Source: Microthyrium microscopicum
Lineage: Eukaryota
Length of the DNA stretch: 64,000 nt
Assembly: GCA_010405405.1 (NCBI GenBank)
Contig: MU004240.1
Coordinates: 138,316-202,315 of the forward strand
Reading direction: 5' to 3'
Under the pieces are notes generated by a model. That model made no database searches. It saw nothing but the letters and a program-made list of their open reading frames with translations, and was not told the origin of the DNA. A program made the position numbers and the translations under genes. Below, one piece after another: positions 1,890-45,500 of the stretch (the first letter of the stretch is position 1; each line of letters opens with the position of its first letter).

Positions 1890-3174
1890 CTCTTCTTTAG
1901 TAAGAATATCTAACTTTACTCTATAACTTCTCTTTTATCCTTTACTATAATAGATACTTAATATCTTTTAAATCCTCTTTGTCTACTATATTATTAAATA
2001 TATTATTTAGATTAAGATACTATTAAATAATTAGTAAATTAATTTAAAAGTAAGAAGATACTATATTTCCTTAATAATAAGTATAGTAGTTAATAAGTAA
2101 GAATGATATTAATATATATGCTTTAACTAGTATTAATTTTATCTATAAACCTAATCTAAAATTAGATATTTCTTCCTTAAAAAGGGCTTTTATATTATTA
2201 ACTACTTGCTTAATAGCAATATAGTATTTAAATATCTATTTATTAAAGTCGTGCTAGATTTAGGTTAGATTCCCTTAGAATAGTGATATAATTAAATTGT
2301 TATTTAAATAGGCTATATTGCTATATAGTAGTAATTTTAGGCCCCTATTAAATATTTAAAAGAGGTAAGTTATATTTATATCTATATAGGATAAATACTA
2401 ACTTATTAAAGTCTATTTTTAAGACCTAATACTAGTAATATACCTAGATTATTTAAACCTCTTAAATATCTTAAATCTATTACTATTATTAATCTGTTAG
2501 GATAGTAAATAATTTAGTATTTTAAATAGTAAGCTTTATTATATTTACTATATAATAATTGCTAAATTGGTCCTTTAGGCTTATAGATATTAATATAAGT
2601 CTTATTAATATAACCTTAAAAGATATTATTACTACTAGCACAATTAATTACTCTAGAGTACTAATAGTATCTTTCTATATTTAAAAGGAGATAGAATTTA
2701 AGTAGGGATTTAGTATAACGTTAGTTAAGATATATAATAGTAGTATTAAAGTAAGTCTTTAGGTATATTATACTTTTACTAAAGTACTAATAGATGTCGT
2801 TATAAGTATATATTTTTGCTAACCTATATAATACTATATAAAGTAGAAAAGGTCTCTTCTAATATGGATTTAAATAATCTTATAGAGAAAGATTCTTAAG
2901 ATTAAAGAGCTCTATTAGCTTAAGGATCTTTTACTTTAAAAATCTACGCTATATAAATTAATACTATAGGCGTTCTTTAATATAGATTTAGCATAATATA
3001 CTAATACTTAATAATAGTTTAGTGATCTAATCTATCCTTAAGATTCTAGTTAAAATAGTAGTATTTTAGTAGTAGTTCTCTCTCTCTTTAATTCTTAACT
3101 ATCGCGAGATGTAAAAGTAGTAGAATTACTACCACTATAGTAATTATTATTAAACGCTGTTTAATAGCGTTTAT
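1890..3174 (-). pseudogene. Harbinger transposase A, RIP-destroyed (3' end approximate)
   Basis: De-RIP reading gives, in order: YRFSKQEILEL, RLA, F(W)GYI(D)xT..I(C)KP, KY(Q)..P(DG), LY(GD)xAY, FN..IA(VE)Q, LLIN(C)HT(C)Y.GN.VSSYF. Intron at 3001-2944 and a probable second intron near 2400-2355. Confidence 0.85.
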
Positions 3175-4453
3175 TTTAGTAGTATTTTAGGTAAGATTAT
3201 AACTAAAAAACGCGCGTAGGGGAAATTTGTATGTAAGTGTTTATCCCTACATAATATTACGCAAAATCGCCACTAACGTATATAATCGCTACTTTAGGCT
3301 AGATCTGTAGATCTGTTCAGTTCAGAGGAGTTCAAATCCTGGCGCCAAAATTACTGGCTGACGGTCCCCATTATAGTCTTGCAAGTCTGATTCAACCGCG
3401 TCCGATGATCCGATTTGGATGATCATCAAAACAGTGTCGCAATAAGATCAGCATTGCCAAGTGTTCATTTTGAATGGCGGACTGGCGGTTGAAGATTTGG
3501 TTGGGAGGGAGTGGATTCCCCCTGCATGCACGGATCATTCAGGAACGCGACAAGCGTCCCAATGCGCGATATGATTGGTTACATCAAGATGTCAAGTGTG
3601 CTAAGGAGCCGCAACTGTTTGTTTCATGTTTCAACTTTGCACAGCTGAGGCTGAAAGATGAAATGGAGGCTCTCTGGTTCCTGTTGTGAACCTGTGGTTG
3701 GTTTGAACCTGACTGATACGTGGGAAATACAATTTGTTGGTTTGCGAATCTGATATCATGGTGAGCCCCTTGATTGTGCTGATCTGAGGACAACAGATAC
3801 AACATTGGTCATGAAGAAGTAGTCGTAACATGATGATGCACAGCATAATAGGTGAATAAGTGGCTGATGCGAACTCCTTTCTTGACGATTACACGAATTA
3901 CACGAATTACCAAATGGCTCGCCAATTCCTTGGTAGTCGGCGCCCGTCAGTGTGGTGTTGGTGGGTCCATCCGACTGGCCTGCCTCGTACCACCCAAACC
4001 TTCCCCTTTTTAGCCATGAGGCGTTAGTTCTTGCCTCCTGTTGACCTGTTCTTGCCTGTTCTAGACATTTTCCACTTGCTCTTTCTTCATTCACTGTCCA
4101 CTCTCTGACTTCATTCTTTTGACCAACACCTTCATTTTCCCTTTTGTTTCACATCTCACTCATTATTCTCCCAGTCTCCCGCCCATTGTGAGACTTGATA
4201 CACATTCTTTTGACCACTGCCTTCACCTTTTACATTCATTCAAACCATTGCTTTCTCTCTCGTCAAATTTCTCACGGCCGGCCGTAGAACACTATTCCCC
4301 CAACCCCACTGTGATAGGGAATTTTAAATTCGGATCACGGATACTGCTCTATCAGAGCTTCACGTCGTACATTATACGTCACATCCGTGTCTTTATCAAT
4401 TGACGCTCTGCTCGCCTTGAAACCTTCGTCTATCACGCTGGGCAATATACCGG

Positions 4454-41019: not shown

Positions 41020-42460
41020 CTTGTTAGTAGTCCAGTCGGAGCAGCAAGAAAGTAGAGAAGATTGGTGGCGGATATGGGTGAAGGATACGGTTGTGGTGAG
41101 AAGCGTGAGATATATCAAAAATCAAAAAAGGTTTGGAAGCTAGATCAGAAGCAGGAAGGTGCACGGAATTCGACAGGGGTTTGGTGGGTAAGCTCTGACT
41201 CTACCATGTCAACCATTGATGATCGCATCCAACTTCAATCCATTCTATGAAATGATAGATTCTTGAATTCTGACATGTACGATAATAGTCTGAATTTAAG
41301 TTGCAAACCAGCTATTCAATATTGTTAACAGGTAATGCGCATTTGGCTAGTCTAATTTGGTGTTTTGGAGCCTGCGCTGTGGCTTTGGTTCTGACTGGAC
41401 GGAGCTCCCTCCACTTATCAAGACCACCTGAAAGACCTACGCAGTCATACATAATTTTGATGCGAGAGAGGAATGTTATTTTGAAGAATAAAAGCAATCT
41501 GACCGCGATGTTGAGTCCCAGGTTTAACAACAGTATACTCGCGAGTAATAGACATGATACACTGAGGCCTCTGCTACGGTACTCCGTGATTGATGAGGGC
41601 TGCGGCGCTGCCCCTCACCCCTCCATCTGATACTGGTATTCCGGTCTGGTACCTTGGTGGCTTGCCAGACCAGATGCACTGTAAGTTAGTCTGCAGCCCA
41701 GCCTGATGTGATGCAGCCAACTACTCTAGAGTACTACTCAGCTCTCAAGAAGATGATAGATTCGGGCATGGCAGCGCGCAAATAAACCGCTGGAACATTC
41801 TCAAGTCAAGAATGCTTGGATTAGAATGGCTATTGGAATTGTGCTCTTATCCTGGAGGGTCGACAGCTCGCATCCACAATAATAAGACCCTAATCCGTCG
41901 CTTAATTAGGAATAGTATTACACATAAATCGATAGTTCTTATATAGCGCTAATAGATTCCATTAGCGCTACATAAGAGATTTTAGCTCTAATTCTTAATA
42001 ACGCATTACCAAAATAGTATTACTATAGAGTTTATATAAACGTTACATCTTAGCCTTATTAGCAATAAAATCCCTTAAGAATTAATCTATTTTAAGCATA
42101 TTTTTAAAGCTACAAGTAGAACTAAGAATAGCTAAGACTCCTAAGAGAGCTATAGGTTATAGAATGCGCCCTAATGAAGAGATATAATCTTATAGTAGTA
42201 ATTTAGCTATAAAAACCATTAGATCTAATATCTTTATATTCTATAACTTATATCTTTATATTCCAAAGCTTAATATCTTCTTTAAAGCTAAAATATCTTA
42301 ATAATATAATTCTATACCTAGAATCTTAATTAAGAGCATACTTAGCTCGTTTAAAGTAACCCTAACAGCAACCCTAACGTCTTCCCTACCCTTTTAAGCC
42401 TTCTAAGGCCCTACTATATAAAATACGCCTATTTAATACTCTAATTACTAGCAGGCCACA

Positions 42461-43378
42461 ATGCCTATAGGGCTAGTAGCTTTACCACACTAGCATTTAA
42501 GCTAGGGCTAGGATAATCTAACCAAATTAGTTAGAATCTACATCTATAATAGGGAATTATATAGTAATAGTACTAGTAATGCCCTAAGTAGTTAAAAGGG
42601 CGTATTTTAGAATAGCATTATTTAAGATTTTAAAGTAGCGTCTAGTAGTAAAGCACCCTCTAATTAGACTATAAAGACTACTCTAAAAGACAATATTTTA
42701 CGCTAGCATAAAGAGAAGAATAAATATTATTTAAGGACAGTTCTTAGATCTAACCTATGTTAAGAAGCTCTAAATACATAGATTATTATTAAAGACTAGT
42801 ATAATTTAAGGGTACTAAGTAGAACTAAAGCTTAGGAACTAGTTAACGCCTATAGGTAAGAATAGGTTTAACGCTACGATATTATTATAATAATATTTAG
42901 TAAGCGTTCTAGCCCTATAATTAAATTAGATAAGACTTCGCCATTACTAGTAGATATTATTACTACTCTATATATTCCTAGATCGCTATTACAAGAATTC
43001 CTTAACTTCAATAGTACTAGTTTAGGTCCTCTACCACTATAGCGTACGCGCGCTTAATCCCCTACCCCTAAGCCTCTAATAGGTCCTAGCTTAGGCTTAA
43101 GAAGGAGTAGAAACACTCAAAATCCTACAGTAGGGCAAGTAAAGCGCCAAAAAACTCGCTCTTATATTAATAAAGCTACAATTATAATAACTCGCTTTTT
43201 TATTAATGCTAATAAGAACCTTAAAAAAGCAGATAAGCTAAAGAAGGCATAATATAAAGCGAATAGGATTTATAATAGTAGTAGTAGTAATCATTTTAGT
43301 AAAGATATATTAGATACAAGAGGTATTAAGTTAAGGGTGTTTAGATTAGAAGAATAGGCTACTTAGGAATTAAAGTGA
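42461..43378 (+). pseudogene. Harbinger accessory ORF2 (Myb/SANT-like) of element B, end approximate
   Basis: ATG at 42461. De-RIP reading LTKLVRI(C)..NRELY....NAPS(GR)KG.F(W)NS ... (SG)TV ... EAL(D)T(W)I; likely intron from ~42856. Confidence 0.65.
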
Positions 43379-43587
43379 TATTTAGAAATAGCAAGAGATC
43401 TTAGCTTTAATCCTATAAATAGACCTAGATAGATATAATTCTAATATTCTCTACAAATTTTAGTAGTAGTTATAGATATATTCCATTTATAGCTCTTTAC
43501 GATATCTTCTAAAAGCTTTAAGGATTAAATAAAATGCTAACCCTAAATCTTTAATATCTTTACCCCTTAATATCTACAAGCACCTAA

Positions 43588-44801
43588 CTATATCTTATCT
43601 TCTTTAACATCTTTAACAAAACAGATATCTTTTAAACTATAATAAATTAACAATTCTATCTAATTAAATATTTCAAAAGGATTTAAATAATCCTTAATAG
43701 ACATTAGCAACGTCCTAAAATAAGAATTTACTAAGTTTGTATAGTAATACGTTAGGCAGTTAGTTAATAAGAACGAGATACTTAAATAACATATAACAGG
43801 CATTAAACTAACGTATAGGCCTAGCCTAAAATTAAATATCCCTCCACGCTATAATCCTTTTAACTAAATAAAAAATTACTTAACGAAAACCCTCTTCTTT
43901 ATTATAATATAGTTAAATCGTCGCTTAATTAGATTTAATAGCCTATCGAATAGAACTATTATAATATTACTACTCTAGTATATAGCATCTCTATATAACC
44001 ATTATTTTTAATAGTGTTAAAATAGCTAACAGAGTCTATCTTTAAGTCTAGACTTAAGTAACATTATTCTATCATTAATAGCACTAGGATAACTAACGTT
44101 AATAGAAAGGATTATACCATTAGGATAATAAACGGCTTAGCTTTTTATATAGTGTCTTCTTATATAACTACTATAAAAAGCTTACTATTAGTCCTCTTTA
44201 CCTTTAGGTTAATAGATATTTACTATAGTAGCATTAATAAAGCCCTAAAAGTAATCTCTACTACCACTATCCCTTATAATATCTATATACTCTTATATTT
44301 AATCTAGCGTTAAAAAAGGATAGAATTTTAAGAGCTTAGAGTAGTAGCGATAAAGATAAAGAAGAGTATTATTAAAGTAGTCCTTTAACGTTATTAGGCT
44401 CTTATAAAACCATTATGCTAAATCAAAATAAATATATAGTTAAGCTAAACGCATAAGTAGTAACAATATTAGGAATTTAGCTTTATATAAAGGATTATAT
44501 TATTTTTTAAAGGGCATATTTTAAAGATCTATTAGTTAAGCTAACTATCTAATTTCCTACTTTAAGAACCTATTACATACTAATTAGTACTATAAGCATT
44601 CTTTAATATAGATTTACTATACTAATATTACAACACCATATTGCTATTACTAAGCAGATCCAAATGCTATTCTTAGTATCTATATTTAATAGGTAATTAA
44701 TATTCTTAATCAATATAGTCCTAATTAATAGCATTAAGGAATTAGAACTATTATAAAGCTACACTAGCAGCTTTACTAGTAATCTATTATACGGCGTCTA
44801 T
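43588..44801 (-). pseudogene. Harbinger DDE_Tnp_4-type transposase B, RIP-destroyed
   Basis: De-RIP reading: RF(S)K(Q)EIR(Q)LA, LLMRLA, F(W)GFI(D)AT..I(CR)P (~44227-44250), FYS(GH), P(D)G, ND..ML.(E)S(G)L, WLY(G)DA.Y, RFN...KRVFV(E), LLTNCLT(C), SYF...MS.(E)DYL. Intron at 44622-44570. Confidence 0.9.
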
Positions 44802-45500
44802 TTTGGGTATCTTAGGCTTTAAATTTAATAATTTTTAGATAGTCAATAGCTAAGATCTAGCAAGATTAAGGTTCAAAAAGCTATAGGGGCAAAATTTGTA
44901 TGTAATCCTTTATCCCTATTTGATACCCCCTAATGGGACCAACTAATCTACCCCTTACCTCTTTTAGCTGTCGGATAGCGTTTATTAATTATCAGGTTTT
45001 CAGCTGTCGACCCTCCAGATCAACGGCTAATGTGTCAATGTTGCGCTACGGAACGGGGCTGAAGTGGTGAGCCAACGATGGCCCCGCTCCCAAACTAGGC
45101 AGTAGGCAGAAATGTAACAAGACACGAGTAATCAGCTACAGGTAGGTAGGTATTGATTGATGTTATTCGTAATAATTGGTGTAGTAAGAAGGTATAGGTC
45201 TGGCATCTCCGGTTTTGATACAGCGCTTTACCCTTTTCCTGCTGCCCGTGATTTCGTGGCTCTTTCCACCTACCAGGCGGCACCTGATTACCTGTAACCT
45301 TAGGCTAACTCTACTACCGTACCCTCTACTACCTCTCCTCAACTCCTCCCTCCCTCTACCTCTACCTTTACTATCTTTGGCACACTTCCAACAAGTAATC
45401 GTTAGATATCCGAAAGTCGACCAAACTTGTCTCTCTCACCATCTTCTGAAAACCACTTACTTCCTCGTCGACTGACTGCCTGTCCTTCGACTCCTCCATC

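Follow-up and report, generated by a model that had tools for sequence, protein, structure and literature searches.

The window analysed here, a 64,000-nt stretch of contig MU004240.1 from Microthyrium microscopicum, contains one copy each of two transposon families, A and B1, and raises the question of why a short piece of an intron should be almost the same in two elements whose transposases have diverged. The first-pass annotation had pointed to 35-nt blocks at 2956-2990 and 44582-44616, in the same transposase intron of both elements, and had ascribed them to a selected cis-element. We reproduced the identity of 32/35. The three mismatches are transitions, as had been reported, all of them C-to-T on the minus strand and in the contexts CpT, CpT, and CpG; the commonest context of RIP is CpA, in which none of the three lies. 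Both blocks sit in GT...AG introns on the minus strand (3001-2944, 58 nt, and 44622-44570, 53 nt), and in both elements this intron 1 splits the Arg codon of Y-R|F. Because RIP makes transitions only, comparisons were coded as purine or pyrimidine (R/Y). In this code the blocks agree at 35/35 sites, compared with 0.65 at codon position 3 of exon 2 and 0.62 at the four-fold sites of exon 2 (A versus B1, n = 16); the match is thus closer than that of synonymous-type sites and goes beyond chance. The caveat that RIP inflates the identity does not account for it, as the conservation persists in R/Y coding, far above third codon positions.

Both elements are RIP-mutated and lie on the minus strand, as do all of their features given below unless stated otherwise. 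The family A element (L001, 1-3369) is 3379 bp long in total, its last 10 bp preceding the window start, and has TIRs and the 3-bp target duplication AAT at both sides; a second copy (L002) is 89.5% identical to it. Exon 1 of its transposase (3002-3174), which runs from a RIP-mutated start codon to the Y-R junction over 57 codons and 2 nt, has a frame common to the other families, and intron 2 (approximately 2356-2402), marked by a frame change near residue 180, served as an internal control. The B1 element (41852-45018, 3167 bp) has a perfect 14-bp TIR and a 3-bp target duplication. Its exon 1 (44623-44801) comprises 59 codons and 2 nt, and its exon 2 (43660-44569), which has many RIP stops, matches DDE_Tnp_4 (PF13359) with an E value of 5e-07, above the curated cut-off when the stops are read as X. 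The start ATG of the transposase survives in 5/30 copies and is kept in the B1 sister copies L032 and L033. A probable second ORF region of B1 (41900-43600, no strand assigned) was recognized by a three-base periodicity of transversions between B1 and B2, and this ORF is more likely convergent with the transposase; tblastx of the region against the outside loci described below gave no hits. Both elements also contain a short TAG/CTA-type trinucleotide repeat, at ~1613-1640 and 43254-43290, in the stretch that separates the transposase from the second ORF region.

Sequence searches of the genome collected at least 31 copies at distinct places, a lower bound, all of them heavily RIPped and A/T-rich. 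No intact, un-RIPped copy was present among 26 protein matches in the genome, and neither a PF13359 family search of the genome nor a word-indexed protein search with the RIPped alignment returned a match. The copies form 12 families in four deep groups, with exon-2 R/Y identities of 0.70-0.80 between the deep groups (0.74 for A versus B1). The 3-bp flank duplications match in all 10 elements with both ends, nine being ANT and one GAT, in a left-end search that permitted A/G-N-T only, the flanks of the B families having also been seen by alignment. The canonical target duplication of PIF/Harbinger elements is TWA, a type found in 0/10 here. TIRs are 14 bp long with 0-3 mismatches, those of families A, C, D, E, F, and G mostly starting with GG and those of B with CT, and two members of the protein clusters of the best relatives are labelled ‘nuclease HARBI1’ by their source. 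By their described features, rather than by a tree with named references, the elements fit the Pangu group as defined by Han et al. (2015; PMC4482050), a group of the PHIS superfamily that is given as equivalent to Repbase Harbinger2 (PMC12730594). In the description by Han et al., Pangu elements are found in ascomycetes and have ANT duplications, TIRs of 11-40 bp usually starting with AG or GG, a mean length of ~3.5 kb, and a second ORF without a known domain. The elements studied here resemble them in their 3-bp ANT duplication, short TIRs, length of ~3.2-3.4 kb, and combination of a DDE transposase with a probable second ORF, but depart from that description (PMC4482050) in the TIRs of family B, which start with CT instead of AG or GG. 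The main text of the same paper does not use the word ‘intron’.

Comparison of the families moved the boundaries of the conserved unit, which is the last 26 nt of intron 1, with a looser edge up to ~35 nt from the acceptor. In B1 it lies at 44570-44595 and includes the branch site (44583-44589) and the acceptor. It overlaps the block of the first-pass annotation by 14 nt, and only this part, the 14 nt of the block nearest the acceptor, belongs to the universal core, whereas the other 21 nt are neutral across the 12 families. The 26 nt are R/Y-identical in 11/12 families. In the remaining one, family A (2944-2969), the intron end matches the others at 23/26 sites, the first 14 nt being common to all families and the last 12 nt rearranged; A has lost the shared tail, yet it has two copies with target duplications. 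By comparison, the longest R/Y-invariant run across families in the 172 codons of exon 2, catalytic motifs included, is 8 nt. When the branch heptamer and YAG are excluded, 16 sites remain. Mapped on the exon-2 tree, these non-signal sites require 3 transversion steps, each of them in family A; 19.0 would be expected if they evolved like codon position 3 (Poisson 7e-6; resampling 2e-5), and 8.8 if they evolved like codon position 2 (p = 0.024). The earlier argument that the branch site covers too little of the conservation is therefore borne out in R/Y coding over 12 families, the non-signal sites being near fixed. The constraint stops at the acceptor: all four letters occur at the first exon base. 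RIP spared only 9/107 CA/TG sites in conserved codons, which leaves five TA sites of the core ambiguous as to their original letters.

A degenerate pattern of the unit, with ≤2 mismatches allowed, matched the genome 29 times, compared with 0 for the reversed control. This intron position accounts for 28/29 matches, and 28/29 non-A copies match. We regard the other match as chance: a two-mismatch hit with C at the branch position (L168, G000:C3:2331375-2331400), it lies in non-element DNA of ordinary GC without tblastn or blastn similarity. An introner-like mobile intron was rejected on the same counts, with all but this unrelated locus at one intron position, and Rfam covariance models gave no match to 44400-45020 at E values up to 1. 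As far as sequence can demonstrate it, selection held the last 26 nt nearly fixed while the elements were alive.

The 21 nt in the middle of the intron (2970-2990 in A and 44596-44616 in B1) have a different history. They take 23 steps across the 12 families, compared with 25 expected, and are thus neutral overall; the first 12 sites take 20/23 of these steps, and 10/21 sites are unchanged, most of them adjoining the core. A and B1 agree here at 21/21 R/Y sites, against the tree. The informative middle sites side with B1 against C1, C2, and C3 in 4/4, 5/5, and 4/4 cases, compared with 30/139, 32/142, and 34/145 in exon 2 (Fisher p 0.003, 0.0008, and 0.004). The first 3-4 informative sites of exon 2 likewise side with B1, and runs of 3-4 also occur elsewhere in exon 2, while the middle segment of D is like both A and B1 at 19/21 sites. 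The A/B1 identity is most likely the result of a short sequence exchange between families or, alternatively, a retained ancestral state. Whole-gene chimeras are not indicated, as trees built from the 5′ end and from exon 1 recover the main groups of the exon-2 tree.

Families A, C, and D have an intron 2 that B, E, F, and G lack, and several outside proteins end at its site, which suggests an old intron that was lost in some families. Its last 26 nt agree at 11-12/26 R/Y sites when D, whose end is uncertain, is compared with A or C, and at 15-16/26 for A versus C, a value lowered by an indel; within C, the agreement is 21 for C1 versus C2 or C3 and 26 for the close pair C2/C3. For intron 1 in other organisms, 80 metagenome loci were fetched with an alignment of un-RIPped relatives and 64 were parsed. 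An intron was called at the intron 1 site in 32/64, of which at least one (L078) was wrong and was dropped, and several other parsed loci read through the site without an intron, leaving 25 distinct outside introns for the tests. The calls lend independent support to an intron at this position. Outside intron 1 drifts: among the pairs listed, the intron ends agree at 10-22/26 sites in 20 pairs with exon-2 identities of 0.80-0.96, and at 26/26 in two near-identical pairs only. The 26-nt block is absent from these relatives, which match it at 6-19/26 sites. The first-pass annotation had held that its absence from un-RIPped relatives would speak against selection; none of the outside relatives keeps the block, as that argument would have it, but all of them lie outside the clade, the closest being 0.63-0.69 identical and placed outside it by a tree that carries a long-branch warning. 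Because the same intron drifts in the outside relatives, the constraint is clade-specific, and it withstands RIP. By eye, the intron ends and first exon-2 residues of a small outside group, the metagenome loci L080, L088, and L121, resemble those of C and E, although the tree does not join the three to these families. A sequencing run taken as RNA yielded a single contig at a TIR end, without joints, and is uninformative on expression; from a further run, X5, three short low-depth pieces, one of them continuing like family D, were left out.

The target of the constraint is most likely the pre-mRNA, at its 3′ splice site. The reading that we prefer, with moderate confidence, is a selected pre-mRNA element that limits splicing of the transposase, probably as a weak hairpin over the branch point and acceptor. 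In the predicted stem-loop, the bases before the branch point would pair with those after it and the first bases with the acceptor, so that the branch adenosine would lie in a 4-nt loop and the stem would often extend into the exon-2 Phe codon. This fold, alone or with a host splicing factor, may lower or condition splicing. With intron 1 lengths of 53-58 nt, retention shifts the frame in 9/12 families, and the three 57-nt families probably keep a stop if the intron is retained; a retained intron, shifting the frame, would therefore cap the output of transposase. Among the functions named in the first-pass annotation, a splicing switch thus appears to fit best. A more specific form of the preferred reading can be offered only tentatively: an RNA switch of 26-35 nt over the branch point and acceptor, held tighter than the catalytic motifs and opening only conditionally (stage, temperature, or host factor), would let transposase be made outside the sexual window of RIP or at a tolerable level, and the family A variant would have rebuilt the fold in a new register.

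The acceptor and the branch region fall within one predicted hairpin in 22/31 copies. In this model, every arm of the stem has a fixed signal (branch site, YAG, or Phe codon) as its partner, and invariance rather than covariation is therefore expected. The pairing holds in 92.9% of cells, compared with 24-51% with slid partners, a control that favours any structure drawn from these sequences. In a few copies, the RIP-escaped bases G at position 3 and C at position 24 would form a G-C pair, and in family A the rearranged tail is predicted to pair with bases just upstream of the core, in another register. With its RIP-altered letters, the 26-mer folds no better than its shuffles (z -0.14 to +0.24), and when the flanks are included z is -2.0 for B1 and -0.3 for A. 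Covariation is within the range of shuffles (90/500 reach the score), with one informative pair holding in 7/12 families. The same masked fold is found in 12/25 ordinary un-RIPped introns, in 35% of cases after simulated RIP, and in 23% of shuffles, and at an MFE of -5.9 or lower in 18% after simulated RIP and 4.5% of shuffles; for all these fold statistics, the copies count as about one independent observation. A by-eye comparison with the U2 snRNA of the genome showed no clean extension of the pairing. A stwintron or an alternative acceptor within intron 1 was rejected, since the pieces, at 14-38 nt, are too short for the minimum-length limits of introns.

The sequence might instead work as double-stranded DNA, a near-palindrome that would be bound by a host transcription factor or the second protein and would regulate the transposase promoter ~320 bp upstream, possibly together with a related half-site in the conserved block before the transposase start; we consider this unlikely. 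The upstream block (3217-3249 in A and 44884-44918 in B1, with 85.7% identity over 35 columns) is alignable in most families and is a candidate promoter; in B1 it includes a 13-nt inverted look-alike of the intron end (44893-44905). It lies ~50-100 nt before the transposase start and has inverted arms around a core that is like the reversed intron end. The core of the intron end is a palindrome of 14 nt in R/Y terms and of 12 nt letter for letter, but comparable palindromes occur in 9% (R/Y) and 2% (letters) of 607 RIPped background 26-mers. A 13-nt degenerate motif is found inverted at the intron end in 26/28 scanned elements, forward ~112-133 nt from the left end in 17/28, and nowhere else in the elements. 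However, this motif was drawn after both places had been seen, and the upstream complementarity of 11-13/14 equals that of a downstream control (11-13). Invariance across families that share one host would suit a host factor, but family A keeps the upstream motif without the intron one, C, D, and F show the reverse, and five complete MITE-like derivatives are without the intron motif. The last point also weakens the earlier proposal of a binding site for the ORF2 protein, as does the result that 12 frames of the two elements gave no hit to Myb/SANT, MADF, or any other Pfam domain, in a search of low power on RIPped frames, RIP lowering the sensitivity. Pairing of the intron end with the upstream block was rejected as well: it did not surpass the downstream control, and 16 outside relatives do not show it.

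Exchange between families, as proposed above for the middle segment, leads to another explanation, that the intron end has no function and that repeated short gene conversion or template switching within one genome homogenized it. The middle segment of A and B1 conflicts with the tree, A and G have the first 11 bases of the intron in common, E2 and F have the same middle where E1 has a different one, and one E1 copy carries an A-type TIR start. On the other hand, the 5′ end, exon 1, and exon 2 yield trees with the same main groups. Exchanged tracts would need to end at the acceptor in each of 11 families, although the exon 2 sequences of these families diverge by as much as 30% (R/Y), and would need to leave intron 2 and the catalytic motifs untouched, which makes homogenization improbable as the cause of the invariance.

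We find it distinctly improbable that the stretch is instead fixed by RNA-processing signals on both strands, those for splicing of the transposase on one strand and, on the other, either a polyadenylation signal or a branch site with its acceptor, which would serve a transcript that comes from the second ORF as an antisense or read-through product. The opposite strand does have a branch-like heptamer followed by YAG, ending exactly at the edge of the invariance, as well as a TAYRTA hexamer, which we take to be the yeast 3′-end efficiency element, and the more likely convergent course of the second ORF would suit such a transcript. Nevertheless, these words depend on TA sites with ambiguous original letters, and signals on both strands would fix ~18/26 sites rather than all of them.

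A coding role in the frame of exon 2, as an alternative N-terminus that would fix many R/Y positions automatically, is highly unlikely. Several codons in this frame are two-fold, and RIP could have made the branch-site stop from a Gln codon; that 0/31 copies retain the Gln codon is not decisive, because retention is only 8%. Yet intron lengths of 53, 55, 56, 57, and 58 nt leave no frame shared with exon 1, neither a common start codon nor a usable upstream acceptor is visible, the TAA is needed as the only branch-site candidate of the intron, and the invariance is above that of even codon position 2. Finally, a mere artefact of RIP convergence and ordinary splice signals is scarcely credible even with every copy heavily RIPped and A/T-rich, as RIP makes transitions only, the tests were R/Y-coded, and the equally RIPped intron 2 and third codon positions are unconserved.

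A splicing-limiting element at the 3′ end of intron 1 would belong to kinds of control that are already known, both regulated transposase splicing and structured branch sites having been described. Splicing of a transposase intron is a control point, as is proposed here, in the Drosophila P element, through its third intron, and in Restless, a fungal hAT element that is alternatively spliced. The P-element silencer, however, is in the exon near the 5′ splice site, whereas the constraint here is at the 3′ end of the intron and its regulatory role is a proposal. The SF3B3 poison exon, as reported, has conserved stem-loops with concealed branch sites (PMC11162794), and in yeast reporters of structure-tuned splicing, base pairing over splice sites is described as tuning the output (PMC12637734). 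Our case is similar in that a conserved intronic stretch is predicted to pair over the branch or splice site and would lower splicing. It differs in that those accounts (PMC11162794, PMC12637734) concern host genes or designed libraries with experimental proof, while here a weak, predicted fold of 26 nt, which does not exceed its statistical controls, lies in a dead transposon, with no poison exon. In Cryptococcus, the Harbinger element HAR1 is silenced by RNAi, and stalled spliceosomes can trigger siRNA production (PMC6643885); that account, in the part available to us, describes no conserved intron element, and poor splicing there exposes the transposon, whereas the sequence here appears to have been selected in the element. 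In the literature searched, which covered few subscription papers, we found no account of an intron element conserved among the transposases of Harbinger or Pangu elements from fungi.

The self-control of transposase is a little-explored side of fungal DNA transposons, and in any transposon it is surprising to see the end of an intron better conserved than the catalytic motifs. Should the constraint act on splicing, the intron provides a 55-nt, easily mutated case of transposon self-limitation in the face of RIP and RNAi, for which family A is a natural mutant and the distant relatives are neutral controls. All copies are dead, and we infer the function from what they have kept; dead, RIPped families still record selection when they are read in R/Y code.

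Several further features of these elements were observed. Eight loci (L043-L050, for example L043:1502-1820) hold MITE-like sequences of 308-330 bp that end in termini of the family B type, contain an internal palindrome, and have suffered little from RIP. A role of the intron end as a transposition cis-element was rejected, the five complete MITE-like elements being without the motif and 3/8 loci having no clean pair of ends. Two pairs of copies, L034 with L039 (G000:C4:1989914-2000655) and L007 with L030, are split, apparently by insertions of several kb. One of the two U2 snRNA matches (L196, G000:C12:664974-665170) is at most ~2 kb from the matched part of the Pangu copy L019. The copies L013 and L011, both of family E1, differ in the TIR start of their left ends, that of L013 being of the A type and that of L011 of the E2/F type, a hint of an exchange of ends between families.
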